A stretch of 64,000 nucleotides of DNA from Candidatus Omnitrophica bacterium UBA6253 (GTDB lineage: Bacteria; Omnitrophota; Gorgyraeia; Gygaellales; Profunditerraquicolaceae), in NCBI GenBank assembly GCA_002441245.1, contig DJVP01000005.1, positions 2,303 through 66,302 on the forward strand, in the 5' to 3' direction. Below the pieces are notes generated by a model. It did no database searches, had not been told where the DNA came from, and saw only the letters and a list, made by a program, of their open reading frames with translations. This document shows, piece after piece, positions 26,209 to 45,391 of the stretch. The position numbers and the translations under genes are program-made. Every line of letters begins with the position of its first letter. Within the stretch, counting starts at the first letter, position 1.

Positions 26209-26238
26209 CAAAAGCAAAGCAGAATGAAATATTCCGGG

Positions 26239-26317
26239 TTCAGAAGTAATGATTATTTCTGAAGGGAGCATTGATGGTCGGGCCGCCATCTGATTTAAAA
26301 TCAGGTGGCGTTTTTTT
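26239..26317 (+). ncRNA. Structured 5'-UTR cis-regulatory element, copy 1 (hairpin A + antiterminator/terminator), upstream of mscS
   Basis: Hairpin A is UUCAGAAGUAA-UGA-UUAUUUCUGAA (26239-26263), followed by AGGG. The 20-mer GATGGTCGGGCCGCCATCTG (26273-26292) is identical to copy 2 and contains the GAUGG/CCAUC stem. Its CCAUC is shared with the terminator hairpin CCAUCUGAUUU-AAA-AAUCAGGUGG plus U7 (26286-26317). The element ends about 40 nt before the mscS start. Confidence 0.6.
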
Positions 26318-26356
26318 ATTTTTACGATATTCTTGGAAATGAATTCAGGAGAAATT

Positions 26357-27409
26357 ATGAACGGAATAATACTTGAGCAGGTTTTTTTAGGAAATAAAAT
26401 ATCGGATTATTTGATATCCGCTGTAGCTTTACTGGCCAGTTTTATGGTCATTAATATTTTTAAACGGCATTTCATAAAACGCCTTAAGAAAATCGCAGAA
26501 AGGACAACTACCACAGTAGATGATTTTCTGGTAAAGGTCATTGAAAAACTCGCCGTTCCTTTCTTATATCTGGTTGCTGTTTATACCATAGTAAAGAATT
26601 TTGCATTGTATCCTTACGTTGAACGCGGTATGAATTATTTAGGTTTTGCCGTTGTAATTGTTTTCGTTGCGCGTTTTGTTATTATGCTTGTTGGGTATGG
26701 TTTTAAAATATACCTGGCCAAAAATAGTAATGATGTTACTCTTGAGCACAGTCTCCAGGGTGTATTGATAGTGATAAAAGTATTGGTTTGGGGCGGCGCA
26801 ATCATCTTTTCTTTAGATAATCTTGGTTTTAAAATCTCAGCGATTATAGCAGGTTTGGGCATTGGCGGCGTGGCTGTGGCATTGGCGGCGCAGACTATCT
26901 TGAAAGATCTCTTCAGCTATTTTTCCATAATCTTTGATCAACCTTTTAAAGTCGGGGATTTCATTATAGTCGGAGACTATATGGGGACGATAGAATATAT
27001 CGGCATAAAGACAACGCGTATCCGCAGCCTGGGAGGGGAGATGCTCGTTTTTTCCAACTCGGATCTTACGGATTCGCGGTTACGTAATTATAAGTTAATG
27101 GAAAAAAGGCGGGTTGTGTTTAAATTAGGGGTTGTTTACCAGGTGCCCACTAAACAATTAAAAGAGTTGCCGAAAATTATAGAAGGAATTATAAAAAATA
27201 CAAAGGATGCAGTCTTTGACCGGGCCCATTTTTGTGCTTACGGAGATTTCAGTTTGATATTCGAAGTAGTATATTATGTGGTTGGTTCTGATTATAATAA
27301 ATATATGGATGTCCAGCAGGAGATTAATTTTTCCATTAAAGAAGAGTTTGAAAAAAGGGGTATCGAATTTGCATATCCAACTCAGACCCTTTATGTTAAT
27401 AAAAACTGA
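26357..27409 (+). CDS. mscS: Mechanosensitive ion channel, MscS family
   Basis: Pore-lining TM3 motif (IAGLGIGGVAVALAAQTILKDLFSYFSIIFD) followed by the beta-domain (FKVGDFIIVGDYMGTIEYIGIKTTRIRSLGGEMLVFSNSDL). Start set at the ATG 5 nt after AGGAG; the ORF track begins earlier at a TTG. Confidence 0.85.
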   Translation: MNGIILEQVFLGNKISDYLISAVALLASFMVINIFKRHFIKRLKKIAERTTTTVDDFLVKVIEKLAVPFLYLVAVYTIVKNFALYPYVERGMNYLGFAVVIVFVARFVIMLVGYGFKIYLAKNSNDVTLEHSLQGVLIVIKVLVWGGAIIFSLDNLGFKISAIIAGLGIGGVAVALAAQTILKDLFSYFSIIFDQPFKVGDFIIVGDYMGTIEYIGIKTTRIRSLGGEMLVFSNSDLTDSRLRNYKLMEKRRVVFKLGVVYQVPTKQLKELPKIIEGIIKNTKDAVFDRAHFCAYGDFSLIFEVVYYVVGSDYNKYMDVQQEINFSIKEEFEKRGIEFAYPTQTLYVNKN

Positions 27410-27432
27410 TTCTGAAGAAAGGAGCAAGAAAG

Positions 27433-28434
27433 ATGGACTGGAAAGAAGGAGTTCCTAATCCCAATGATATTATTGATGCAGGTAAGAAGAAATTTGGCGA
27501 TTTTTTAAAGTTCCTGCCTTTGGTAATTGTTGGTTTTTTTATACTGGCAGGCTTAAGGGGGGTAATTTATTCCATAGGGCCAGACGAGGTAGGCGTAATT
27601 CAAAGGTTTGGTAAATACATTGCCTTAAGTTCACCTGGGCTGCACGCAAAAATACCCTTTGGGATAGATAAGGTGATGCCGATTAAAGTAGAAAAGGTTT
27701 TCAAAGAGGAATTCGGGTTTAAGACCATAGAGCCGGGGCGCAGGACAACATATTCCGCGCGTAAATATGAGGATGAATCATTGATGCTTACCGGAGACTT
27801 GAATATACTAGATGTGCGCTGGATAGTACAGTTTAAGATAAAAGATCCGGTAAAATTGCTTTTCGCTACACGTCACCCCGAAGATAATATACACGACATT
27901 TCCGAAGTAGTTATGCGGCGTTTTGTCGGGGATTATTCTGTAGATGAAGTCCTTACTACTAAAAGAGAAGAGATAGATGATTTGGCGCAGCAAGAGATTC
28001 AGCGTATACTTGATAATTATAATGTTGGAGTGCATATAGTTACGGTTAAGCTATTGGATGTTAATCCTCCTGAGGCGGTAAAGTCCGCATTTAACGAAGT
28101 AAATGAGGCTAAACAGGAAAAAGAAAAGATGATTAACCAAGCTTGGGAAGCATATAATAAAGTTATTCCTAAGGCCAAGGGTACAGCAGAAAAGACTATC
28201 CGTGAATCAGAGGGTTATGCTATGGATAAGATAAACCGTGCAAGGGGGGAATCAGCCAGATTCCTTGCTACCTTAGAGGAGTATAAGAAAGCCCCGGATA
28301 TAACTAAAAAGAGGCTGTATTTAGAAACTTTGACGCAAGTTTTTCCTAACGCAAAAGAGAAATACATAATTGATTCGCAGCAAAAATCAATTCTACCTCT
28401 TTTGGATATTAACAAGAAAGGAGGGCAGCAGTAA
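27433..28434 (+). CDS. hflK: FtsH protease modulator HflK (SPFH/band-7)
   Basis: N-terminal TM, then GVIQRFGKY...SPGLHAKIPF and the SPFH domain. Paired with hflC. Confidence 0.9.
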   Translation: MDWKEGVPNPNDIIDAGKKKFGDFLKFLPLVIVGFFILAGLRGVIYSIGPDEVGVIQRFGKYIALSSPGLHAKIPFGIDKVMPIKVEKVFKEEFGFKTIEPGRRTTYSARKYEDESLMLTGDLNILDVRWIVQFKIKDPVKLLFATRHPEDNIHDISEVVMRRFVGDYSVDEVLTTKREEIDDLAQQEIQRILDNYNVGVHIVTVKLLDVNPPEAVKSAFNEVNEAKQEKEKMINQAWEAYNKVIPKAKGTAEKTIRESEGYAMDKINRARGESARFLATLEEYKKAPDITKKRLYLETLTQVFPNAKEKYIIDSQQKSILPLLDINKKGGQQ

Positions 28435-29393
28435 TGAGGACATTACGTTTAATTATTGGGTTTTTTGCGGTATTATTAGCTATTATATTGCTTTTGTTTG
28501 CCTTCGGCGCGATATATATAATCGAAGAAGGAAAACAGGCGGTTGTTACGCAATTCGGAAAACCCGTGGGCAACCCGATTACCTCGGCTGGCCTGCATTT
28601 TAAGCAGCCATTAATTCAGGAAGTGCATTATTTTGAGAAGAGGCTGTTAGATTGGGACGGAGACCCAAACCAGATACCTACTAAAGATAAAAAATATATC
28701 TGGGTGGATACTACTGCCCGATGGAAAATTGTAGATGCTTTGAAATTCCTGCAGTCAGTAGGCAATGAAATGAGTGCTCAGGGCAGGATCGATGATATCA
28801 TAAACTCCGCAACCAGGGATATAATTACCAGCCATCTTTTGGTTGAAGCGGTAAGGGATTCTAACCGTATTTTGGAGTCCAGAGTAGAAGGTGAGGATAT
28901 GATTGTTACGGATGAGGCATTAGAACGTATTGAAGTAGGCAGAAAAATGCTGGAGAGCGCAATTTTAGAAAAAGCAAAAGTTCTTGCCCCCCAATATGGT
29001 ATTGATATTGTTGATGTGCGTATTAAACGCGTAAATTATGTAGAAGATGTGCGTAATAAAGTTTATGATCGTATGATTGCCGAAAGAAAGCGTGCCGCAG
29101 AGAAATATCGTTCCGAAGGCCAGGGAAAATCTGCTGAGATAGAGGGGCAGGTAGCCAAGGAATTAAAGGCTATTACTTCGGAGGCCTACCGTCAGGCGCA
29201 GATTATTACCGGTAAGGCGGATGCCGAAGCAATCAGTATATATGCTAGCGCATACAGTCAGGATTCCGATTTTTATTCTTTTATGAAAACACTGGAAACT
29301 TACAGAACTACTATTGATGAAAAATCTACGATAATATTGACTACCGACAGTGAATATTATAAATATATAAAGTCCTTGGATGCTTCGAAATAG
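28434..29393 (+). CDS. hflC: FtsH protease modulator HflC (SPFH/band-7)
   Basis: N-terminal TM, AVVTQFGKPVG...AGLHFKQPLIQ, and the SPFH domain. Its start overlaps the hflK stop (ATGA). Confidence 0.9.
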   Translation: MRTLRLIIGFFAVLLAIILLLFAFGAIYIIEEGKQAVVTQFGKPVGNPITSAGLHFKQPLIQEVHYFEKRLLDWDGDPNQIPTKDKKYIWVDTTARWKIVDALKFLQSVGNEMSAQGRIDDIINSATRDIITSHLLVEAVRDSNRILESRVEGEDMIVTDEALERIEVGRKMLESAILEKAKVLAPQYGIDIVDVRIKRVNYVEDVRNKVYDRMIAERKRAAEKYRSEGQGKSAEIEGQVAKELKAITSEAYRQAQIITGKADAEAISIYASAYSQDSDFYSFMKTLETYRTTIDEKSTIILTTDSEYYKYIKSLDASK

Positions 29394-29562: not shown

Positions 29563-30690
29563 ATGTCTTCAGGAAAACTTACCTTTGATTATTTAGAGTC
29601 AAAAATTCTCCAGCTTAAACTAAGCGGAGACTGGCAGCTTTCCGCAGGCCTTCCTTCGGCAGATGAAGTCCTTGCCCAGCTTGATTCCCATGCAGGTATT
29701 ACCGGGGTTAGTTTTGTTGCGTCTCAGGATTTCAAATGGGACAGCGCGTTTATTTCCTTCCTGTTTAAATTAAGAAGTATCTCTAAAGAAAGAAATATCC
29801 GATTTACTGTTTTAGGCCTTCCTCCGCAGATAGAAAAGCTGCTTAAGCTTTCTCCCGCGCAAGCTGAGAAAATAATACCCCATAAGACAGTAGAGGAGCC
29901 TTTTCTCGATAGTATAGGCAGTAGGGTTATCGGGGTTAAAAATACCACGCTTTCTGTGTTGAGTTTCTTAGGGGATATTGTGCTCGCTTTTAAACGCTTT
30001 ATTTGCGGTAAAGCTTTTTTTCGCAAAGATGATTTTCTTGCTATCGTGCAAAGATGTGGAGCAGATGCCTTGGGGTTGGTTTCACTGATTAGCATATTAG
30101 TGGGGATGATCCTGGCTTTTATCGGTGCGATTCAGTTAAAGATGTTCGGGGCGCAGATTTATATCGCCGATATCGTAGGGATTGCTATGGTCCGGGTGAT
30201 GGGGGCGATAATGACGGCAATTTTAATGTCTGGCCGCACCGGAGCCAGTTTTGCCGCAGAATTGGGGATTATGCAGGCTAATGAAGAGATTGATGCACTG
30301 AAAACTTTGGGAGTTTCTCCGGCCGAATTTTTGATCATGCCGCGCGTATTGGCATTAGTAATAATGATGCCGCTGTTGACTATTTATGCAAACCTGATGG
30401 GTATAGCCGGGGGGTTTATTATCAGCACGGGGGTTTTGGGGCTTAACCCTGTTGAGTATTTTAATCATACTATAACAGCGGTAAAGTTGAATAATCTTTG
30501 GCTTGGGTTGATTCAGGGGTTTGTTTTCGGCATAATCATCGCAGTTTCCGGATGTTATAGAGGAATGCAATGCGAAAGAAGCTCCACAGGCATAGGTGAA
30601 GCTACAACCTCGGCAGTGGTCACGGCAATAACTGCTATCGTAATTGCTACCGCAATTATTACTTTTGTTTGCCAGATTATAGGGGTTTAA
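29563..30690 (+). CDS. MlaE-family ABC permease with N-terminal STAS-like domain
   Basis: About 110-aa soluble N-terminal domain, then the MlaE-type permease core (ILMSGRTGASFAAELGIMQANEEIDALKTLGVSP). It is followed by the ATPase and an MCE protein. Confidence 0.85.
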   Translation: MSSGKLTFDYLESKILQLKLSGDWQLSAGLPSADEVLAQLDSHAGITGVSFVASQDFKWDSAFISFLFKLRSISKERNIRFTVLGLPPQIEKLLKLSPAQAEKIIPHKTVEEPFLDSIGSRVIGVKNTTLSVLSFLGDIVLAFKRFICGKAFFRKDDFLAIVQRCGADALGLVSLISILVGMILAFIGAIQLKMFGAQIYIADIVGIAMVRVMGAIMTAILMSGRTGASFAAELGIMQANEEIDALKTLGVSPAEFLIMPRVLALVIMMPLLTIYANLMGIAGGFIISTGVLGLNPVEYFNHTITAVKLNNLWLGLIQGFVFGIIIAVSGCYRGMQCERSSTGIGEATTSAVVTAITAIVIATAIITFVCQIIGV

Positions 30691-30693
30691 TTA

Positions 30694-31455
30694 ATGGAAA
30701 CTGTTATTGAAGTAAAAAACCTTGATTTGGTTTATGGCGATTTTTTAGTGATGCGCGGGCTTAATTTTAACGTAAAGAAGGGCGAGATTTTTGTTATTAT
30801 GGGTGGTAGCGGATGCGGTAAAAGTACCCTGCTTAAAACCATGATTGGACTTAACCCTCCGCAAAAAGGAAAAATTTTGTATAGCGGGTTAAGCTTTTGG
30901 GATGAGGATGAGCAGGCGCGGCAGGATATTATGCGTCGTTTCGGAGTACTTTATCAGGGGGGCGCTCTTTGGAGTTCGTTGACACTGGGGGAGAATGTCG
31001 CACTTCCTTTGCAATTATATTCCAGCTTATCGGCCCTACAGATTCAAGATGTAGTTTTACTTAAACTTGGGTTGGTAGGGTTGGGCGGTTACGCTGATTT
31101 TTATCCTGCAGAATTAAGCGGCGGAATGAGAAAAAGAGCGGGCCTGGCACGGGCAATCGCTTTAGATCCTGATGTTATCTTTTTTGATGAGCCTTCGGCA
31201 GGGCTTGACCCTTTAAGCGCAAAGATGCTGGATGACTTAATCCTTGAATTAAGGGATGATTTAGGGGCGACGATCGTAGTGGTAACGCATGAGCTTGCCA
31301 GCATTTTTACTGTGGGAGATAATGCTATGCTTTTGGATGCCGATACCAAGACTGCGATTGCGCAAGGGGCGCCTAAAGATTTATTAGCTAATTCTAAAGA
31401 CCCTCGGGTTGTTAAATTCCTGACGCGGGGAGAAAAGCAAGGAGCCGGAAAATGA
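30694..31455 (+). CDS. ABC transporter ATP-binding protein (MlaF-like)
   Basis: Walker A is GGSGCGKST, the signature motif is LSGGMRKRAGLARAIA, and Walker B is VIFFDEPSAGLD. Confidence 0.9.
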   Translation: METVIEVKNLDLVYGDFLVMRGLNFNVKKGEIFVIMGGSGCGKSTLLKTMIGLNPPQKGKILYSGLSFWDEDEQARQDIMRRFGVLYQGGALWSSLTLGENVALPLQLYSSLSALQIQDVVLLKLGLVGLGGYADFYPAELSGGMRKRAGLARAIALDPDVIFFDEPSAGLDPLSAKMLDDLILELRDDLGATIVVVTHELASIFTVGDNAMLLDADTKTAIAQGAPKDLLANSKDPRVVKFLTRGEKQGAGK

Positions 31456-32153
31456 GAAAAGCCAATAAAACATTGATTGGTGCATTTGTAGTGGGAGCGG
31501 TTGTGTTATTAATCATAGCCGTAATAGTTTTTGGATCTGGCATGCTTTTTAAGCAATCAGATAAGTACGTTTTATTTTTTGACGGCTCGGTAAAGGGGCT
31601 TTCGGAGGGGGCGTCAGTGATCTTCCGGGGGGTTAAAATTGGGAATGTCAATAATATCAGACTATTGTATGATGAGAAAGAGAAAAGCGTGCTGATACCT
31701 GTAATTATTGATGTAGAATTATCTCGGGTCAAGGGGGTGCCTGATAAGCTCGGTTATCCCGATTACAAGAAGTTGATTGAAGAAGGGTTGCAGGCCAAGC
31801 TTGAAATACAGAATTTTATTACCGGGCAGTTGATTATAGGGCTAGATTTTTATCCGGATAGGCCAGCCAAAACCTATGGGATCATCAAAGAATATCCTGA
31901 ATTGCCCGCGCTTCCGATATCGCCGGATATTTTTGATATAATGAATAAGATCCCGATTGTAAAGATCGCAGATGATCTGGAACAGACAGTTAGCGGTATT
32001 AACAGGCTGGTAAATTCAGAAGGTGTTGCTGAATTAGAGAAAACACTGCGGGAAGTATCCCAGGCTGCCCGTTCAGCACGGCTGTTGACAGAGTATCTTG
32101 AGCAGCATCCCGAAGCATTGTTAAGAGGAAAAACAATATCCAAAGGAGAATAA
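31452..32153 (+). CDS. MCE-domain substrate-binding protein (MlaD-like)
   Basis: N-terminal TM anchor followed by an MCE fold (FDGSVKGLSEGASVIFRGVKIGNVNNI). Confidence 0.8.
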   Translation: MRKANKTLIGAFVVGAVVLLIIAVIVFGSGMLFKQSDKYVLFFDGSVKGLSEGASVIFRGVKIGNVNNIRLLYDEKEKSVLIPVIIDVELSRVKGVPDKLGYPDYKKLIEEGLQAKLEIQNFITGQLIIGLDFYPDRPAKTYGIIKEYPELPALPISPDIFDIMNKIPIVKIADDLEQTVSGINRLVNSEGVAELEKTLREVSQAARSARLLTEYLEQHPEALLRGKTISKGE

Positions 32154-32155
32154 AA

Positions 32156-32809
32156 ATGAGAAGATTGAGGTTTTTCTGTTTTAGCGTAACTGCCTGCGGA
32201 TTACTTATGTTTTTTTTAAGCGGATGTATTTCAGCTGGTAGCAGCATCAACCCGCGTTTTTATATGCTTAAACAGTTAGAAGATAATGAAGTTGTGCAGA
32301 AGTTTAACCTCCCCTCTGGCATAATTACCGTAATCGGCCCTGTGGCAATTCCTCAATATCTGGACCGTCCGCAGATGGTTACTCAGGAAGATAAAGGAAT
32401 GATAGATATCGCTCAGTTTGACCGCTGGGGTGAATCTCTTGATGCAGGAATAGCGCGTTTGATTATTGAAGACCTTAATCTTATGCTTCCAGGAGGGACT
32501 TTTGAGGTGTTTCCCTGTAATTTTGCTATCCCGTTGAATTATCAGGTGATAGTAGGAGTCATACAATTGGATTGCAACCTTAAAAAAGAGCTTTCACTTG
32601 TGGCGCAATGGTCGATTATTGACGCAAATACCAGGAAGATGCTCCTTACAAAAAGGTCGGATCTGGTCCAGGCAATTAATCCGCATAATTATCCCGGATT
32701 AGCGAAAGCGCTCAGTAGGGCAGTTTCTTCATTAAGTGCTGAGATAGCCCAAAACTTATCAATATTAGCAAATCAGCCTAAGAAAATCCTGCAAAACGAA
32801 CAATCCTGA
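32156..32809 (+). CDS. ABC-transport auxiliary lipoprotein (PqiC/DUF330-like)
   Basis: Lipobox LSGCIS. About 200-aa domain. The position directly after an MCE gene is typical of PqiC/YmbA-type lipoproteins. Confidence 0.65.
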   Translation: MRRLRFFCFSVTACGLLMFFLSGCISAGSSINPRFYMLKQLEDNEVVQKFNLPSGIITVIGPVAIPQYLDRPQMVTQEDKGMIDIAQFDRWGESLDAGIARLIIEDLNLMLPGGTFEVFPCNFAIPLNYQVIVGVIQLDCNLKKELSLVAQWSIIDANTRKMLLTKRSDLVQAINPHNYPGLAKALSRAVSSLSAEIAQNLSILANQPKKILQNEQS

Positions 32810-33084
32810 CTCCTAGAACCAGTATCCAGGTTTTATTGCCTTACGGCAGCAAAGATTTGTATGTTACAGCAGGCTGCAAGAGTAAGCGGGTCGGCAATTC
32901 TTAACCAAAATGCGAAATGCCGGGTGTAATCTGTGCTATTCTAAAGGCTTAAGGCATCGTGTTTACCGGGCCATATCAAATTCTATCTTAATCCCTATGC
33001 AATAATGAGAATATCTCTTTAATTATCCGGGGGCTTTCTGCAAAATTTATTCTTAATTCACGAAAGATATATGTCTTGAGGTAT

Positions 33085-33102
33085 TAACTGGAAGTGATAT
33101 AA
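33085..33102 (+). promoter_or_regulatory. Promoter -10 region (TATAAT) for the otsA operon leader
   Basis: TATAAT at 33097-33102, with TTGAGG about 17 nt upstream. Confidence 0.4.
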
Positions 33103-33128
33103 TATGTAAGAATAAAGTTAGTAAGTGG

Positions 33129-33213
33129 TCCGGAAGTACTCTAGGGTATTTCTGGAGGGGTTTTTTGATGGTCGGGCCGCCATCTGGTTTAATAATCAGA
33201 TGACGGTTTTGTT
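33129..33213 (+). ncRNA. Structured 5'-UTR cis-regulatory element, copy 2, upstream of sensor-otsA/mscS/otsB/treT operon
   Basis: Hairpin A' is UCCGGAAGUA-CUCUAGGG-UAUUUCUGGA (33129-33156), with compensatory changes relative to copy 1, followed by AGGGG. The identical 20-mer GATGGTCGGGCCGCCATCTG is at 33167-33186. The terminator-like hairpin is CAUCUGGUU-UAAU-AAUCAGAUG plus a U-rich tract (33181-33213). An RBS (GAGGAG) and the ATG at 33233 follow. Confidence 0.6.
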
Positions 33214-33232
33214 CCTTAGAGGAGCTAATTAA

Positions 33233-35470
33233 ATGAAAAGAATTCTTCTGTTTATCTTACCTATATTAATTTTAGTAGCGCTTGGATTTGCTATTTCAGG
33301 TATTATGCAGGCTCGTTTCACAGAAGAAAAGCTTATGGATGATTTGAAAAGAAAAGCCAAGTCTGTGGATGAGAGCCTGGAGTTATCCGCAAGGTATATC
33401 CTTATTAATAACGATTTAAGGCAAGCCAATCGTTTAGTTGATAGCTTCCAGAAGAGAGAAAGGCTGCAGGGGTGTGTTATTTATAATAAGGATGGCCAAA
33501 TACTGGCTATTACTGAGCGGTTCTCTGATTTTAAACAAAGAGAAAGGCCATATCTTAAAGATATCCTATCTACTAAGAATCCGCGGGGATCTCTAGAAAA
33601 ATTTAAAGAATATTCTGTATATAGTTACATTTTGCCTGTTTTAAATGACGATGAGAGCGTGCTGGGGATGGTAGAGGTAATTTATGATACTTCTTATATG
33701 TTTTCTACTTTAACGGAACTATGGAGAAAAATAAGCGTTACCTCTATTGCACTTATTTTACTGATAGTTTTAACTGCCTTATTAATCCAAAGGCAGATTT
33801 TTATTGTTCCTGTGCGCAGGTTAACCCAATGGTTTACGCATTTCCAGAGAGGGGAAACTGATAAATTGCAGCCATTTGAAGAAAAAGGTGAATTCGGAAA
33901 ACTCATTAGTGAAGTAGAGCAGGTTGCCTTAAGCATAAGAGTGGCCCGCCGTACCATGTCTGATGAAGCGCATGTCCGGTTGCAAAAAGAAGAACTTTGG
34001 ACTGAAGCTAAACTTAAAGATCTTATCCATGCAAAGCTGGGAAATAATTCACTATTTGTGGTTTCCAACAGAGAGCCATATATGCATGTTTTCGATGATG
34101 CCCTGGGTAAGGAGATATGTATAAGGCCGGCAAGCGGAGTTGTCACTGCGATACATCCTATACTTTCAGCATGCGGCGGTACATGGATTGCTCATGGCAG
34201 CGGTAATTCCGATAGAAAATTTGTTAATTCTAAAGATAAACTCGGTGTTCCCCCTGAAGATAACCGGTATATCCTTAAGAGAGTATGGCTTAATAAAGAG
34301 GAGGAACAAGGCTATTATTACGGTTTTTCTAATGAAGGTTTATGGCCCTTATGCCATAATACGCACACACGTCCAATTTTTAAAGAATCTGATTGGCGTA
34401 TGTATAAAGAAGTAAATCAGAAGTTTGCGGATAGTGTTTTGAGTGAGTTGCCAGCCAGCAGTCCGTTTATATTTGTACAGGATTACCATTTTACTCTTCT
34501 CCCAAAGATGATAAAAGATAAGCGTCCGGATGCAAAAGTAGCCTTATTCTGGCATATCCCCTGGCCTACTCCCGAAGCCTTTATGATTTGCCCTTATCAA
34601 AATGAAATTCTAGAGGGAATGTTGGGTTGCGATTTGATTGGTTTCCATGTCCAGAATCATTGTAATAATTTTCTTGATACCGCTAATCGCCTGCTTGAGT
34701 CACGCGTAGATACTGAAAGATTCAGCGTTGTGCGTTCGGGAAAAGAAACTTTTATAAGAGCTTTTCCTATAAGCATTAACGCGCATATAGAAGATGGCTC
34801 ATTCAAGGTTGATCCGATAAGGCAGGTGGAAAAGTTGAAAAAAGAGTTTGAACTTAAAAATGAGATTATTGCTGTGGGTGTAGATAGGATTGATTACACT
34901 AAAGGTATAGTTGAGAGAATCTTGGCGATAGACAGGTTTCTAGATAAATATCCTGAATATAAAAAGAAATTTGTTTTTATCCAATTGGCCGCTCCAAGCC
35001 GTACGCATATTAAGCGTTATCACGATTTAATTGGAGAAATTGATGAATTAGTTGAAAAGATTAACTGGAAGCATATAGATGGTAATTGGAAGCCGATAAT
35101 TTATCTCAAAAAGCATTTTTCCCAAGACGATATTCAGCCTTATTATAAACTTGGTGATATTTGTATAGTTAGTTCACTGCATGACGGAATGAATTTAGTG
35201 GCTAAAGAGTATGTTGCGGAGAAGGATGATCTGTCCGGGGCTTTAATCTTAAGTCAATTTACCGGAGCAGCGCGTGAACTTACTGATGCTATCATGGTTA
35301 ATCCATATTCGATTGAAGAGTTTGCCGATAGCATAAGGCTGGCAGTCCAGATGCCTAAGGAGGAGAAGCGGAGGCGTATGGAGAATATGCGCCAGGTGAT
35401 AGCTGAAAACAATATTTACCGTTGGGCAGCAAATATTATTACCGAGTTGGTTGCATTAAAGAAAATATAA
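33233..35470 (+). CDS. otsA: Trehalose-6-phosphate synthase (OtsA, GT20) fused to an N-terminal membrane sensor module (TM - periplasmic domain - TM - HAMP-like)
   Basis: Residues 1-260 contain TM1, an approximately 140-aa extracytoplasmic domain, TM2 and a HAMP-like amphipathic linker. GT20 follows (LFVVSNREPY, WPLCH, FVQDYHFTLLP, WHIPWP, VGVDRIDYTKG). Confidence 0.85.
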   Translation: MKRILLFILPILILVALGFAISGIMQARFTEEKLMDDLKRKAKSVDESLELSARYILINNDLRQANRLVDSFQKRERLQGCVIYNKDGQILAITERFSDFKQRERPYLKDILSTKNPRGSLEKFKEYSVYSYILPVLNDDESVLGMVEVIYDTSYMFSTLTELWRKISVTSIALILLIVLTALLIQRQIFIVPVRRLTQWFTHFQRGETDKLQPFEEKGEFGKLISEVEQVALSIRVARRTMSDEAHVRLQKEELWTEAKLKDLIHAKLGNNSLFVVSNREPYMHVFDDALGKEICIRPASGVVTAIHPILSACGGTWIAHGSGNSDRKFVNSKDKLGVPPEDNRYILKRVWLNKEEEQGYYYGFSNEGLWPLCHNTHTRPIFKESDWRMYKEVNQKFADSVLSELPASSPFIFVQDYHFTLLPKMIKDKRPDAKVALFWHIPWPTPEAFMICPYQNEILEGMLGCDLIGFHVQNHCNNFLDTANRLLESRVDTERFSVVRSGKETFIRAFPISINAHIEDGSFKVDPIRQVEKLKKEFELKNEIIAVGVDRIDYTKGIVERILAIDRFLDKYPEYKKKFVFIQLAAPSRTHIKRYHDLIGEIDELVEKINWKHIDGNWKPIIYLKKHFSQDDIQPYYKLGDICIVSSLHDGMNLVAKEYVAEKDDLSGALILSQFTGAARELTDAIMVNPYSIEEFADSIRLAVQMPKEEKRRRMENMRQVIAENNIYRWAANIITELVALKKI

Positions 35471-35484
35471 CTTATGAGGGGTAA

Positions 35485-36540
35485 ATGGAAGAAAATTTAT
35501 TCTTAAGACTTCCTGATTTAGCTGAAAAGTTTATGCCATTGTTTATTTTTTTGGTAGTTTTATCTATAGGGTTAATTCTTAAGTGGATAATCTTTAATCG
35601 TTTTTTACATTGGGCCAAGAAAGCATCTACGCAACTTGATGATATTATTATGCGAGCAATTAAGGGGCCGTTTATGGTTTTATGCCTGATGTTAAGTTTG
35701 TATTTTGCCCTGCAATTCTCAAAATTACCAGAAAATATTGTGCATGTTATAAGTAAAAGCATACTTATACTGGGGATAATTTCTGTAATGTTAGCATCGG
35801 CGAATTTGCTATCCGGGATGATAAAAACTTATGCCACCAGGGTTGATTCCGCCTTGGCTGTTACCAGCCTTACTCAGAATATTGCCAGGATTTTTGTTTT
35901 TTCAATCGGCACATTAATAATTCTTAACAGCTTGGGCATATCCATAACTCCCATATTAGCAACTTTGGGAGTGGGTGGTTTAGCAGTTGCCTTGGCCCTC
36001 CAGGATACCTTGACAAATCTTTTTGCAGGTTTTCATATCACTATTGTAAAACAGGTAAGGGTCGGTGATTATATTAAATTGGAAACAGGAGAAGAAGGCT
36101 ATGTGGTTGATATTAACTGGCGTTCAACAAAGATCAAGATGTTGGCCAATAATCTTGTTCTCGTACCGAACGATAAATTAAATAAAGCCATTGTTACCAA
36201 TTATTTCTTGCCAGATAAGGAAATGTCAGTTTTGATTGATCTGGGAGTGCATTATAAAAGCGACCTGGAGAAAGTGGAGAGGGTTACTTCTGAGGTGGCC
36301 AAATCCGTTATGACAGAGGTAAACGGCGGGGTTGCCTATTTTGAGCCGTTTATCCGCTATCATACATTTGGGGATTCCGGCATAAAGTTTACAGTTATAT
36401 TAAGGGTTAAGGAATTTGTTGATCAGTATCTGATAAAGCATGAGTTTATTAAAAGGTTGCACAAGCGCTATATCAAAGAAGAGATTGGGATCCCTTATCC
36501 TGTAAGGGCGATAAACTATGAACAGGAGAAAGTAGCTTGA
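35485..36540 (+). CDS. Mechanosensitive ion channel, MscS family (second copy)
   Basis: TM3 pore motif (LATLGVGGLAVALALQDTLTNLFAGFHITIV) and beta-domain (VRVGDYIKLETGEEGYVVDINWRSTKIKMLANNLVLVPNDKL). It lies 14 bp after otsA. Confidence 0.85.
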   Translation: MEENLFLRLPDLAEKFMPLFIFLVVLSIGLILKWIIFNRFLHWAKKASTQLDDIIMRAIKGPFMVLCLMLSLYFALQFSKLPENIVHVISKSILILGIISVMLASANLLSGMIKTYATRVDSALAVTSLTQNIARIFVFSIGTLIILNSLGISITPILATLGVGGLAVALALQDTLTNLFAGFHITIVKQVRVGDYIKLETGEEGYVVDINWRSTKIKMLANNLVLVPNDKLNKAIVTNYFLPDKEMSVLIDLGVHYKSDLEKVERVTSEVAKSVMTEVNGGVAYFEPFIRYHTFGDSGIKFTVILRVKEFVDQYLIKHEFIKRLHKRYIKEEIGIPYPVRAINYEQEKVA

Positions 36541-36546
36541 TATAAA

Positions 36547-37344
36547 ATGCGCCATGTTTTTAATGATCTGGAAAATATAAAAATAAGTTTAGCGGATAAA
36601 TATTTATATTTATTTCTTGATTACGATGGGACGTTAGCTCCTATTGCTGGTACCCCGGATAAAGCGATAATTCCGCAAAGGACAAAAAGGTTACTTGATT
36701 TACTGTCAAAAAAAAATAATTGCAGAATAGCAGTTATTAGTGGCAGGGCCTTGGCTGACATAAAGAAAAGAATTGGTCTTAAAAATGTAATTTATTCAGG
36801 TAATCATGGTTTTCAAATAGACGGTCCGAAGATTAAGCATGGGTTGCCAGTTTCTCCGGCGTATAAAAAGGCATTGTTGCGCATTAAAACCCAGCTTAAG
36901 GAAAAGCTTTCCGGTACAAAAGGAATCTTTATCGAGGATAAAGGATTTTCGTTAGCACTGCATTTCAGGCTTGTTGATAAGGGGGAGCTTTCCTTTGTTA
37001 AAACCATCTTCCGTAAGAGTATTGTTCCATATTTAATAAGAAATAAGATTAAGATTAGGCCTGGCAAGAAAGTTCTTGAAGTAATGCCGCCAGTGGATTG
37101 GGATAAAGGGAAAGTTGTTTTGTGGCTTTTAACAAGGCAGATCCTTGCGTTTAAGAAAAAAAACATTTTTCCTGTTTATATCGGTGACGATGTAACTGAC
37201 GAAGATGCATTCAGGGCGTTAAAGGGGAAAGGTCTGACGATATTTGTTGGCAAACCCGGGAATTCTAAAGCGGATTACTACTTAAAGAATGCAGAAGAAG
37301 TAGTTAAATTCATGCGTTTAATAGGGGATTTAAAACTTAACTGA
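36547..37344 (+). CDS. otsB: Trehalose-6-phosphate phosphatase (OtsB, HAD-IIB)
   Basis: HAD motif I is FLDYDGTLAP. Motif III/IV is GDDVTDEDAF. Size matches OtsB. Confidence 0.85.
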   Translation: MRHVFNDLENIKISLADKYLYLFLDYDGTLAPIAGTPDKAIIPQRTKRLLDLLSKKNNCRIAVISGRALADIKKRIGLKNVIYSGNHGFQIDGPKIKHGLPVSPAYKKALLRIKTQLKEKLSGTKGIFIEDKGFSLALHFRLVDKGELSFVKTIFRKSIVPYLIRNKIKIRPGKKVLEVMPPVDWDKGKVVLWLLTRQILAFKKKNIFPVYIGDDVTDEDAFRALKGKGLTIFVGKPGNSKADYYLKNAEEVVKFMRLIGDLKLN

Positions 37345-37346
37345 TT

Positions 37347-38018
37347 ATGCCGGAATTAATAAAGGCAAAAGAGCCGTTTAGGTTTTGTACAAGATTGCAT
37401 TTATCAGAGCTGACCGGATTACGGGCTACTACTTTAGGCCAGCTTTTAGTCCTTATTAAGGAAGTGCCTGGTTCATGTATCTATCACCATACGCATAGGT
37501 TCTTGCAGCAGCATCAGTATCTTTCTCCTGAGCCTCCTAACGACTTCGCCTACTGGGTAACGGATATCCTTGGAGAAGATGAACTTGGAGAAAGGCTGGT
37601 TAGTATCGATACTATGCAATATTCAACTATCCGTGATCTTCGCGATAAGATTGCTTTGACTATTGAGGATTGTTTACGGGATAGCCCGTTCGCTAAATTG
37701 AAATTTGCCAGATCCGGGGAAGAGTTCCATTTCATGAAGTCGGTCAGTTTTATCCTGCCGACAAACTATTTTGTTTATGATCTGGAGGAATTTGCAAAGG
37801 TTTTAAAGAAAATTACCATTGATTCTATTTATTTCCATATTTTTGAAGCGCGCCTTAGGCTCGAAAAATCAACGAATGACTTTTCATATTGGATAGAAAA
37901 CTCTTTGGGGGATAAGGAATTAGCGGATAAGATTTCCGGTTTTGATCCCTATACCCGTACTTTGGAGGATTTAAGAAATAAGATTATCCAAATAGTAGAA
38001 AGAAGGATAACCGATTAA
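37347..38018 (+). CDS. Hypothetical protein with internal tandem duplication (2 x ~100 aa), trehalose-operon associated
   Basis: Repeat signature is F[RH]F...IY.H...NDF[AS]YW..LG..EL...D....T..DLR.KI. It occurs twice, at residues 11-110 and 118-220. Confidence 0.5.
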   Translation: MPELIKAKEPFRFCTRLHLSELTGLRATTLGQLLVLIKEVPGSCIYHHTHRFLQQHQYLSPEPPNDFAYWVTDILGEDELGERLVSIDTMQYSTIRDLRDKIALTIEDCLRDSPFAKLKFARSGEEFHFMKSVSFILPTNYFVYDLEEFAKVLKKITIDSIYFHIFEARLRLEKSTNDFSYWIENSLGDKELADKISGFDPYTRTLEDLRNKIIQIVERRITD

Positions 38019-39233
38019 ATGGCGAAAATAGAAGAGTATATACCCTTAGTGGGGCAAGCAGTTATCGATGATTTAAGATTGCTTAGCGAACGGTTGAAAG
38101 GTAAGGTGATCCAGCATATAAATTCTACTCCTGTAGGAGGCGGGGTTGCGGAGATATTAAGCCGCATGGTGCCTTTATTAAGGGAATTAGGAGTAGATAC
38201 GAAATGGGATGTAATAAAAGGGGGAGAGCAATTTTTTGGAGTTACAAAGAAATTTCATAATTCCTTGCATGGCAGGGCTGAAGAAATAACTCAAAGGGAT
38301 TTTGAGATATTTATGGAAACGAGCCAGCAGAATATTGAGAGTGTCAATGCTTATGGGGATATAGTTTTTGTCCATGACCCGCAGCCAATAGCCTTGATAA
38401 AAAAGAAAGCTGATAATAAATGGCTTTGGCGTTGCCATATTGATGTAGCCAGTCCTAATGAAAAAGTCTGGGGATTCCTTATGGATTTTATACCTCGTTA
38501 CGATTCAGCAGTATTTTCCGCTCCTGCTTTTTCACGGAGATTACCTATTAGGCAATTCTTAATCCCTCCTTCCATTGATCCGCTAAGCGATAAAAATAAA
38601 GAGTTGCCGCAGGAAACAATAAACTTTGTTTTAAGAAAATACAATATCAAGAAAGATAAGCCTATTGTTATTCAAATCTCCCGCTTTGATCGTTTAAAAG
38701 ACCCTGTAGGCGTAATTGAGGCATATTTGCAAGTAAAGAAATACATTGATTGTCAATTGATTTTGGCTGGCGGATCAGCAGAGGATGATCCCGAGGGATT
38801 TAAGGTTTTAGAGGAAGTTAAGGAAAGAGCCAAGAAAGACCCGGATATCCATATTTTATTATTACCTCAAAATGATATAGAGGTTAATGCATTGCAGAGA
38901 GCTTCAGATGTAATTGTTCAAAAGTCCCTAAAGGAAGGATTCGGCTTAACTGTATCTGAGGCTTTGTGGAAAGCAAAGCCAGTTGTAGCTTCAAATGTTG
39001 GAGGTATTCCCTTGCAAATAAAACATAAATATTCAGGTTTACTCTGCCATTCAATCGAAGGGGCCAGTTTTGCCATAAAACAACTCTTAAGCAGCCCGGC
39101 TTACGCCAGTAAATTGGGGGAAAATGGGCGTGAGCATATAAAAAATAATTTCTTGATTACGCGTCATTTAAGAGATTATATGTTGTTGTTTCTTTCATTG
39201 TATCATCCTGAGGATATCGTTAATCTCTGCTGA
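38019..39233 (+). CDS. treT: Trehalose glycosyltransferring synthase TreT (GT4; NDP-glucose + glucose -> trehalose)
   Basis: Near-colinear with archaeal TreT over the full length: HINSTPVGGGVAEIL, VHDPQPIALI, WLWRCHID, PPSIDPLSDKNKEL, ISRFDRLKDP, AGGSAEDDPEG, LKEGFGLTVSEALWK. Confidence 0.85.
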   Translation: MAKIEEYIPLVGQAVIDDLRLLSERLKGKVIQHINSTPVGGGVAEILSRMVPLLRELGVDTKWDVIKGGEQFFGVTKKFHNSLHGRAEEITQRDFEIFMETSQQNIESVNAYGDIVFVHDPQPIALIKKKADNKWLWRCHIDVASPNEKVWGFLMDFIPRYDSAVFSAPAFSRRLPIRQFLIPPSIDPLSDKNKELPQETINFVLRKYNIKKDKPIVIQISRFDRLKDPVGVIEAYLQVKKYIDCQLILAGGSAEDDPEGFKVLEEVKERAKKDPDIHILLLPQNDIEVNALQRASDVIVQKSLKEGFGLTVSEALWKAKPVVASNVGGIPLQIKHKYSGLLCHSIEGASFAIKQLLSSPAYASKLGENGREHIKNNFLITRHLRDYMLLFLSLYHPEDIVNLC

Positions 39234-44426: not shown

Positions 44427-44527
44427 AGTGCGATATCGGGGGAGGCTGGTTAACCGGCCTGAGAGTTCTGTGCAGTAAACAGATTACCCTTATGAACCTG
44501 ATCTGGATAATGCCAGCGGAGGGAGGT
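44427..44527 (+). ncRNA. TPP (thiamine pyrophosphate) riboswitch aptamer (THI element)
   Basis: GGGGGAGGCUGG...GGCCUGAGAG...ACCCUUAUGAACCUGAUCUGGAUAAUGCCAGCGGAGGGA matches the THI-box consensus (CUGAGA, ACCUGAUCUGGAUAAUGCCAGCG, AGGGA). Confidence 0.9.
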
Positions 44528-44536
44528 TAATGCGTG

Positions 44537-44566
44537 ACCCTTATGCAATTGGCATAAGGGTTTTTT
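44537..44566 (+). terminator. Intrinsic terminator acting as the TPP riboswitch expression platform
   Basis: ACCCUUAUGC-aauug-GCAUAAGGGU is a perfect 10-bp stem, followed by UUUUUU. Its 5' arm repeats the aptamer segment ACCCUUAUG. Confidence 0.85.
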
Positions 44567-44611: not shown

Positions 44612-45391
44612 ATGCAATTAGATGAAATAAAAATTTCCAAGGCCATTATTGAATCATATAACAACAAATTAATTGATGCACTTGATGTTGATGTTGCTAT
44701 TGTTGGGGCAGGACCTGCCGGTATGGTGTGTGGTTATTATCTGGCTAAAGCAGGAAAGAAAGTAGTGCTTTTTGAAAGAAAACTTTCAGTTGGCGGAGGC
44801 ATGTGGGGCGGAGGGATCATGTTTAATGAAATAGTGGTTCAGGATAAGGCCAAAGGTATTCTCGATGAATTTGGCATTAGAAGCAGGTGCTATGAACCGG
44901 GCTATTATTTAGCGGATTCCGTAGAGTCAGTATCAACTATCTGTTCTAAAGCGATGAAGGCAGGTCTGAGAATTTTTAACCTTATGAGCGTAGAGGATGT
45001 TATGGTACGAAGAAAGAAAGTAGTAGGCTTGGTATTGAATTGGACTGCGGTAGAAATGGCGAAGTTGCACGTTGATCCGATTACTATGCGCGCTAAAGTC
45101 GTGGTGGATGCGACAGGACATCCAGCAGAAGTAACGCGTATTGTTGAAAGAAAATCCGGAATAAGACTTAAGACAAAAACCGGGAAAACATTAGGAGAAG
45201 AATCAATGTGGGCGCAGGTGGGAGAAGAAACGATTGTGGAAAATTCAAAGCAGGCCTGTTCTGGTTTGTATACCTGTGGCATGTGTGCGAATGCGGTTTT
45301 TGGCGGCCCGCGTATGGGGCCGATATTCGGCGGAATGCTTCTTGCCGGTAAAAAAGTTGCCAAAGATTTGATCAATAAGCTTGTTTGCTAA
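44612..45391 (+). CDS. thi4: Thiazole synthase, Thi4 family (eukaryal/archaeal-type thiamine thiazole biosynthesis enzyme)
   Basis: FAD/NAD dinucleotide fold ([21 protein letters not shown]), [19 protein letters not shown] and the C-terminal [14 protein letters not shown]. Sits directly behind the TPP riboswitch. Confidence 0.85.

Follow-up and report, generated by a model that had tools for sequence, protein, structure and literature searches.

Here, we describe a gene at positions 33233..35470 of a 64,000-nucleotide stretch of DNA (the window) from Candidatus Omnitrophica bacterium UBA6253 (assembly GCA_002441245.1, contig DJVP01000005.1). It codes for a single protein of 745 amino acids in which a Cache-HAMP receptor module is joined to an OtsA-type glycosyltransferase domain of family GT20. 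The gene heads an operon whose features all lie on the + strand, and coordinates refer to the window unless another locus is named. An in-frame TAA (33230-33232) directly abuts the ATG of the open reading frame (ORF) and makes extension upstream impossible, and a ribosome-binding site (RBS), GAGGAG at 33219..33224, can be read in the sequence 8 nt before the ATG. Together, the stop codon and the RBS therefore fix the start of the fusion gene.

Architecture of the fusion protein

Only two hydrophobic segments are found among the 745 residues (Kyte-Doolittle hydropathy, 19-residue windows above 1.6). The first transmembrane segment, TM1 (residues ~4-26, 33242..33310), follows an N-terminus (MKR) assigned to the cytoplasm, and its helix in the AlphaFold model continues into the N-terminal helix of the predicted single Cache (PDC/PAS-like) extracytoplasmic domain (residues ~27-165, 33311..33727). 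The second, TM2 (residues ~166-192, 33728..33808), leads into a HAMP domain (residues ~193-250, 33809..33982), which consists of a first amphipathic segment (AS1) with an invariant P193, a connector with G207 and a second amphipathic segment (AS2, residues 222-250). A fixed-length linker (residues 251-273, 33983..34051) carrying the motif EELWTEAKLKDLIHAKLG then passes into strand beta-1 and the SNR motif of the GT20/OtsA catalytic domain (residues 274-739, 34052..35449). Positive charges lie on the cytoplasmic sides of both membrane segments (MKR at the N-terminus, VRR after TM2). Together with hydropathy and charge, the requirement for substrates from the cytoplasm points to a topology with a cytoplasmic N-terminus, TM1, a periplasmic Cache domain, TM2 and a cytoplasmic HAMP-linker-OtsA portion. 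The predicted local distance difference test score (pLDDT) is 80.6 for the full-length model and 82.1 for a model of the N-terminal part. The predicted fold begins with a long helix at residues 2-59 that extends from TM1 to the outside domain, followed by another helix and then, at 79-152, by five strands and two short helices. A helix at 154-205 (TM2 and AS1) is separated by a loop from one at 222-251 (AS2), and a further helix spans 258-269.

An earlier note on this DNA, made from the letters alone, had drawn the same outline. It placed TM1 at residues 5-25, an extracytoplasmic domain of about 140 residues, TM2 at ~165-187, an amphipathic HAMP-like linker and, directly after it, a GT20 domain, all behind a good GAGGAG site at the ATG of 33233. 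Every element is recovered here with small shifts in the membrane boundaries; the outside domain folds, in the model, as a single Cache, and the HAMP-like stretch is a genuine HAMP by profile alignment and by the Pfam scores of homologues.

The Cache assignment rests mainly on structure. In the window protein the Pfam Cache families stay below their gathering thresholds, with 24.4-26 bits against 45 for dCache_1, 20.3-24.4 against 28.4 for sCache_3_2 and 14.9-18.2 against 22.1 for sCache_4, depending on the query segment; sCache_3_2 was matched at E < 0.01 in 15 of 22 homologues. A search of the N-terminal 272 residues against the chain sequences of the PDB returned only noise (SidH, E ~5). 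The model has the long N-terminal helix, the five-stranded sheet with flanking helices and the C-terminal helix into TM2 that define the PDC fold. When the N-terminal model was compared with the PDB by Foldseek, the top match was the full-length integrative model of WalK, 9A5D (270 aligned columns, E = 1e-11). Matches at a probability of 1.00 included the WalK extracellular domain 4ywz (TM-score, TMt, 0.71), CitA 2j80 (0.77), DcuS 3by8, KinD 4jgp and Tlp3. DctB was also matched, and the NCBIfam WalK model aligns with residues 3-246. A 4HB_MCP fold, which the earlier note had listed beside Cache as a candidate for the outside domain, was rejected: the model has a five-stranded sheet and matches PDC/Cache structures, and the outside domain is therefore predicted to be a single Cache/PDC domain, most like the sensor of WalK, and not a four-helix bundle.

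For residues 160-276 of the window protein no Pfam family was found even at E <= 10, Pfam HAMP (PF00672) included. Four close homologues scanned singly do exceed the gathering threshold of this family (25.8-28.9 bits, residues ~187-236), and an alignment-wide scan (E <= 0.01) finds it at the same positions in 6 of 22 close homologues. The profile comparison that the earlier note had proposed was decisive in the same direction: hhalign aligned a profile of the module with sensor kinases at a probability of 99.5% (E = 5e-23), window residues 12-249 falling onto kinase residues 12-249. The kinases score 50-58 bits for Pfam HAMP in the aligned stretch, and the HAMP of one of them, P0291 (57.8 bits), aligns with window residues 188-236. 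P193 in AS1 and G207 in the connector are invariant in 61 sequences, and the model has the expected helix-connector-helix (154-205, loop, 222-251) right after TM2. By profile-profile homology and the Pfam scores of homologues, residues 193-250 are best assigned as HAMP.

In a profile search, the nearest relatives of the module outside GT20 proteins were TM-sCache-TM-HAMP-HisKA-HATPase kinases and TM-Cache-TM-GGDEF cyclases, and by homology the N-terminal part would be a signalling module. Scans of the 745 residues with Pfam and NCBIfam found no HisKA, HATPase_c or MCP signalling domain. The protein is therefore neither a kinase nor a chemoreceptor, and only the input module is common to them. 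In two metagenomic GGDEF diguanylate cyclases (P0242 and P0253) the Cache domain has the same motifs, QGCVIYD and VEVIYDTS, as the Omnitrophota fusion and no HAMP follows; the same type of sensor apparently feeds cyclic di-GMP signalling in related organisms.

The connection between HAMP and enzyme is of particular interest. W256 stands 23 residues from N279 of the SNR motif in every one of 269 sequences, some of which are only 20-30% identical in this region; G222 and N279 are 57 residues apart in 254 of 270, and only the HAMP connector varies in length. Residues W256, T257, E258 and L261 are near-invariant, and the linker ends a few residues ahead of the SNR acceptor-binding motif with its active-site arginine. 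A conserved helical connector of fixed length is what would be expected of a signal-transmitting link and not of a flexible tether. The coupling of HAMP to the enzyme thus looks rigid, and this is the main indirect argument for regulation.

In the enzyme half, Pfam Glyco_transf_20 matches residues 274-739 with 418.1 bits against a gathering threshold of 32.5 (E = 6e-125), covering profile positions 3-471 of 473. The GT-B fold superposes on the OtsA/Tps1 structures 5jio, 5hut and 1gz5 (TMt 0.85-0.90, E down to 6e-37; Foldseek against the PDB), and the closest solved structures are all trehalose-6-phosphate (T6P) synthases. The domain is 35% identical to E. coli OtsA, and SNR, DYH, HIPxPTPE, RxDYxKG, PSR and DGMNLVAKEY are all conserved in a pairwise alignment with the K-12 protein; we take these motifs, from the E. 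coli structures, to carry the glucose-6-phosphate and UDP-glucose contacts. The OtsA domain is complete, keeps its catalytic motifs and is predicted to be catalytically competent. Membership of the GT20 family is clear, and a name at the equivalog level does not follow automatically. The OtsA models are the best NCBIfam matches, the bifunctional model PRK14501 reaching 481 bits against a cut-off of 634, and the GgpS model matches as well, with 312 bits. T6P synthesis, from glucose-6-phosphate and an NDP-glucose, is the best supported of the candidate activities. No second GT20 copy was found within the 64-kb window.

Conservation and genomic setting

The survey of long OtsA homologues suggested in the earlier note bears directly on whether the fusion is genuine. 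A full-length search returned more than 110 clusters (90% identity grouping), 74-100% identical and nearly all of 744-746 residues; one of them is an exact match from an NCBI Omnitrophica metagenome-assembled genome (MAG). A scan with one genome per species gave 79 loci. With tblastn, practically all loci that no contig end truncates gave a single unbroken alignment (query residues 1-744/745), and 66 full-length copies, from species-level genomes, have no internal stop. Across these 66 copies N-terminal identity follows GT20 identity. In a codon-level comparison with locus L001, the non-synonymous (pN) and synonymous (pS) values over codons 1-272 are 0.036 and 0.52 (ratio ~0.07). The values are similar for TM1, Cache, TM2 plus HAMP and the linker taken separately, and equal those of GT20. 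Many positions in Cache and HAMP are invariant among homologues. By these measures the sensor half is under purifying selection as strong as that on the enzyme half, and the pN and pS values and the invariant positions mark it as a functional part of the protein and not a relic. A separate small gene for the N-terminus was also considered and rejected. A search with the N-terminal part only gave just fragments of <=470 residues, which the full-length search and tblastn revealed as contig-end truncations of the 745-residue protein. The comparisons indicate that the fusion is real and old, and not an artefact of gene calling.

Carriers of the fusion are mostly Candidatus Omnitrophota, with others in Elusimicrobiota (L042, L043 and L074), Desantisbacteria (L073) and a MAG labelled 'Spirochaetes' (L037). 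Fragment entries from the N-terminal search are labelled Syntrophales, Nitrospirota and Ratteibacteria, and distant full-length versions, 42-44% identical, include Acidobacteriota PYV27934.1, with a trehalose-phosphatase gene downstream. A profile of the N-terminal part matches 1752 representatives (50% identity clusters) at E < 1e-3, 337 of them at E < 1e-10; among the 150 matches listed, GT20 is present in 40 of the 51 that have at least 300 residues.

The fusion gene of locus L050 (JAZDEW010000023.1, 1832-4066) is a mosaic, its GT20 part 94% identical to the window protein and its N-terminal 250 residues 60%, with a switch near the boundary of HAMP and linker (pN 0.22 upstream, 0.03 downstream). 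This looks like a recombinational swap of the sensor module. Three MAGs have two diverged copies of the receptor-OtsA gene on separate contigs (L008 and L038 in VGKM01, L024 and L071 in CAKKQA01, L018 and L079 in JALNZI01). These may be either paralogues, possibly with different sensor specificities, or binning mixtures.

Downstream of the fusion gene lie genes for an MscS-type mechanosensitive channel (35485..36540, Pfam MS_channel domains), the trehalose-6-phosphate phosphatase OtsB (36547..37344, NCBIfam TIGR00685, 159 bits against a cut-off of 68), a DUF5752 protein (37347..38018, Pfam PF19027, E = 2.5e-68) and a TreT-like GT4 glycosyltransferase of the trehalose synthase family (38019..39233, Pfam TreT_GT1 and Glycos_transf_1). 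The last product scores 364 bits with the NCBIfam TreT model, below the cut-off of 775. Within the 79 loci, OtsB is encoded downstream of the fusion in 66, DUF5752 in 62 and the TreT-like protein in 60; an otsB gene also follows the fusion in an Acidobacteriota locus. MscS was matched in 39 loci, and in 37 of these its gene is the immediate neighbour of the fusion on one side or the other. The order fusion-OtsB-DUF5752-TreT recurs in ~60 loci, about half of them with MscS beside the fusion. The DUF5752 gene is always paired with the TreT-like GT4 gene right after otsB (~60 loci). The operon would hold either two trehalose-forming routes, or one route and a DUF5752/TreT-like pair that modifies trehalose. 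In some relatives, for example at L040 (10209-11869), inserted genes for a CBS-domain protein and a Na+/H+ exchanger separate the fusion from otsB.

The earlier note had also placed this operon under a leader RNA, which can now be named. A candidate sigma-70-like promoter (TTGAGG-16-TATAAT with a TG extension, 33076..33103), called from its consensus match of 10 of 12 positions, precedes an nhaA-I riboswitch aptamer (Li+-I/Na+-II class; 33126..33185, Rfam RF03057, 38.9 bits against a gathering threshold of 37). A terminator scan found a terminator-like hairpin and U tract (33181..33212, hairpin 33181-33202) that overlaps the 3' half of aptamer stem P2, and the minimum-free-energy fold of the leader shows the alternative hairpin (z = -4.05). 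The hairpin and U tract, in competition with P2, are likely the expression platform of an ON switch. Upstream of the operon, nhaA-I scores above gathering in 11 of 16 related loci, other phyla included, with 40-51 bits in those 11. The nhaA-I RNAs are Li+ riboswitches of the Li+-I class, with rare Na+-sensing variants (Na+-II) that use terminators (White et al. 2022, PMC9646797; PMC9337991). White et al. noted occasional T6P synthase genes behind nhaA-I and suggested possible Na+ or osmotic control (PMC9646797). In their report, terminator-type variants were confined to Deltaproteobacteria and preceded genes without a known function (PMC9646797), whereas the leaders described here belong to Omnitrophota, Elusimicrobiota and Desantisbacteria and stand upstream of an MscS/trehalose operon. 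The terminator platform of the window leader resembles the Na+-II variants. Given the MscS/OtsB/TreT-like operon, the Na+/H+ exchanger at L040, the nhaA-I leader and the remark of White et al., the locus therefore reads as a salt/osmotic stress module.

A second and stronger nhaA-I match (26236-26291, +, 48.3 bits) stands before another MscS-type channel gene and two SPFH/Band-7 genes (ORFs 26333-29393), which suggests that cation riboswitches control a small regulon against envelope and osmotic stress in this genome. In several relatives (L001, L005, L076, L078, L010 and L045) the TreT-like gene is followed by another leader-like sequence; at L001 (14019-15298) a second leader copy lies ahead of an Rnf/Nqr membrane subunit. 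Directly upstream of the trehalose-operon leader, at 29563-32809, the window holds a Mla-like lipid-transport ABC system (MlaE permease, ATPase, MlaD/MCE protein and ABC_trans_aux lipoprotein), which was not found beside the fusion in the 79 related loci. A thiamin pyrophosphate (TPP) riboswitch (44428-44541, +, 59.3 bits against 54.3) lies upstream of the ORF at 44612-45391.

Proposed function and alternatives

We propose, with a modest leaning in its favour, that the protein is a one-polypeptide transmembrane receptor-enzyme in which an envelope cue gates T6P synthesis through the HAMP domain and the fixed linker, transcription being gated separately by an intracellular cation. The protein would dimerise via Cache, membrane segments and HAMP, as sensor kinases do. 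The HAMP conformation would be altered by a ligand in the periplasm or by osmotic or ionic conditions at the envelope, and the linker of fixed length would carry the change to the N-lobe of OtsA and its acceptor site, where it would raise or lower T6P synthesis. OtsB would then convert T6P to trehalose, and transcription of the operon would be controlled independently by the terminator-type cation (Na+ or Li+) riboswitch. With riboswitch and receptor both in control, production of the compatible solute would follow a cytoplasmic ion through the RNA and an extracytoplasmic signal through the protein. Post-translational gating by an envelope signal, as the earlier note envisaged, is made plausible by a sensor conserved like the enzyme, by the invariant linker length and by the occurrence of the same module on kinases and cyclases. 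In its boldest form, which we offer tentatively and rate a little short of an even chance, the proposal is that of a first HAMP-regulated glycosyltransferase. A WalK-like Cache domain would read a periplasmic cue and flip the HAMP, and the linker would open or close the OtsA active site; with the riboswitch, compatible-solute synthesis would then depend on two inputs, a cytoplasmic cation and a signal at the envelope, in a design conserved in much of Omnitrophota and in several other uncultured phyla.

Several points weigh against this proposal. Allosteric control is an inference and not a direct observation, and we found no precedent for a HAMP-regulated GT-B glycosyltransferase. The AlphaFold models are monomeric, so that dimerisation and a four-helix bundle of HAMP are assumptions, and their pLDDT is only 59-77 across HAMP and linker. 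The window protein itself falls below the Pfam thresholds for both Cache and HAMP. Its score with the NCBIfam OtsA equivalog TIGR02400, 427.4 bits, is below the cut-off of 564.85, so the exact substrates are inferred as well. At the RNA level, nhaA-I was not found in three distant-type loci tested, two of them Acidobacteriota, and the Acidobacteriota-type loci are also without MscS; the two-tier scheme is therefore limited to the Omnitrophota-type operon.

The main rival to a receptor-enzyme is that the N-terminal module is a mere membrane anchor or scaffold. It would keep OtsA tethered or oligomerised at the inner membrane, perhaps close to MscS or another osmoregulatory protein, and pass on no signal. 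The indirect nature of the case for allostery leaves room for this idea, as do the weak sequence-level Cache matches, and the presence of membrane proteins like MscS in the operon makes co-localisation plausible. A plain anchor, however, requires no Cache fold, no HAMP and no linker of invariant length, all of which are under enzyme-like purifying selection, and in other proteins this module serves as the input of kinases and GGDEF cyclases. Anchoring without signalling explains the selection on Cache, HAMP and linker length poorly, and we regard it as rather unlikely.

The remaining readings are minor. One concerns the product. The GT20 domain might make another phosphorylated glycoside, such as glucosylglycerol-phosphate or another compatible-solute precursor, as the shortfall in the OtsA equivalog score (427 against 565) and the 312 bits of the GgpS model would allow. 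The OtsA models nevertheless score best, the closest solved structures are all T6P synthases, the acceptor and donor motifs are as in E. coli OtsA and the operon holds a trehalose-phosphatase, called above its equivalog cut-off, in 66 loci, so that we consider a different product improbable. Still less probable is a GT20 domain that has become a non-catalytic sensor of sugar-phosphate, the protein signalling outward or to partners. Nothing specific speaks for it beyond the formal possibility that enzyme domains become sensors, and it has to contend with intact catalytic motifs, with Pfam and NCBIfam scans that show no other output domain, and with the co-transcription of OtsB, which needs T6P. 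That the fusion is itself an artefact of two adjacent genes, or of a true start downstream near residue 260, was the objection that the earlier note had raised against its own claim. An internal Met at residue 243 and the many fragmentary database entries could be cited for it, yet the continuous stop-free frame in 66 independent genomes, the pN/pS of ~0.07 in the upstream part, the RBS at the first ATG with a stop codon just before it and the more than 110 clusters coding for proteins of 744-746 residues rule it out as far as sequence evidence goes.

Comparison with known systems

The known outputs of transmembrane Cache-HAMP receptors (kinases, chemoreceptor arrays, cyclases and phosphatases) all relay information. 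The earlier note knew of no characterised receptor-OtsA fusion, and our full-text search of the literature likewise found no account of a Cache/HAMP-OtsA fusion or of a HAMP-glycosyltransferase output. The architecture is thus undescribed, though widely conserved in uncultured phyla. Databases call the protein plainly 'trehalose-6-phosphate synthase', to which JGI occasionally adds 'membrane protein affecting hemolysin expression', and behind that plain name it lies hidden in hundreds of entries. If the proposal holds, a GT-B glycosyltransferase would be under the direct control of conformational signalling machinery and would join the known output domains of signalling, and osmoadaptation would gain a new, fast route that does not depend on transcription. 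Co-occurrence with a cation riboswitch, MscS and sometimes a Na+/H+ antiporter would make the locus a small, testable and experimentally tractable system for the study of layered osmoregulation in Omnitrophota, whose physiology has hardly been approached by experiment.

The enzyme half resembles OtsA and Tps1 (E. coli 1GZ5, M. thermoresistibile 5JIJ) in its full GT-B GT20 domain, in its substrate-binding motifs and in the presence of OtsB in the operon. Canonical bacterial OtsA is, in contrast, a soluble protein of ~460-490 residues, to which the fusion adds 273 N-terminal residues in the form of a two-TM receptor module. Post-translational control of such synthases has precedents in the K+-stimulated OtsA of E. 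coli, in the salt-released GgpS of Synechocystis and in the N-terminal autoinhibitory extension of plant TPS1. As in those cases, the synthase itself, beyond its transcription, would be switched by osmotic state or through an N-terminal extension. Those are soluble enzymes, however, which use ionic strength, nucleic-acid binding or an unrelated extension, and none has a transmembrane Cache-HAMP receptor.

The sensor half resembles kinases of the WalK (YycG) type, on whose input region (TM-sCache-TM-HAMP) the whole N-terminal 270 residues superpose; the HAMP-HisKA-HATPase kinases of the profile search are closer relatives of the module. Unlike WalK, the fusion has no PAS, DHp or catalytic ATPase domain and no phosphotransfer, its output is a glycosyltransferase and sequence identity is only 14-19%. 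In its logic the fusion corresponds to the Cache/HAMP-GGDEF cyclases, where a membrane sensor and a helical transducer are likewise fused to an enzyme without a phosphorelay. The mycobacterial HAMP-adenylyl cyclase Rv3645 follows the same sensor-transducer-enzyme arrangement. HAMP-cyclases make second messengers with catalytic domains that are obligately dimeric, whereas the output of the fusion is a GT-B enzyme of primary metabolism, predicted to make the precursor of a compatible solute.

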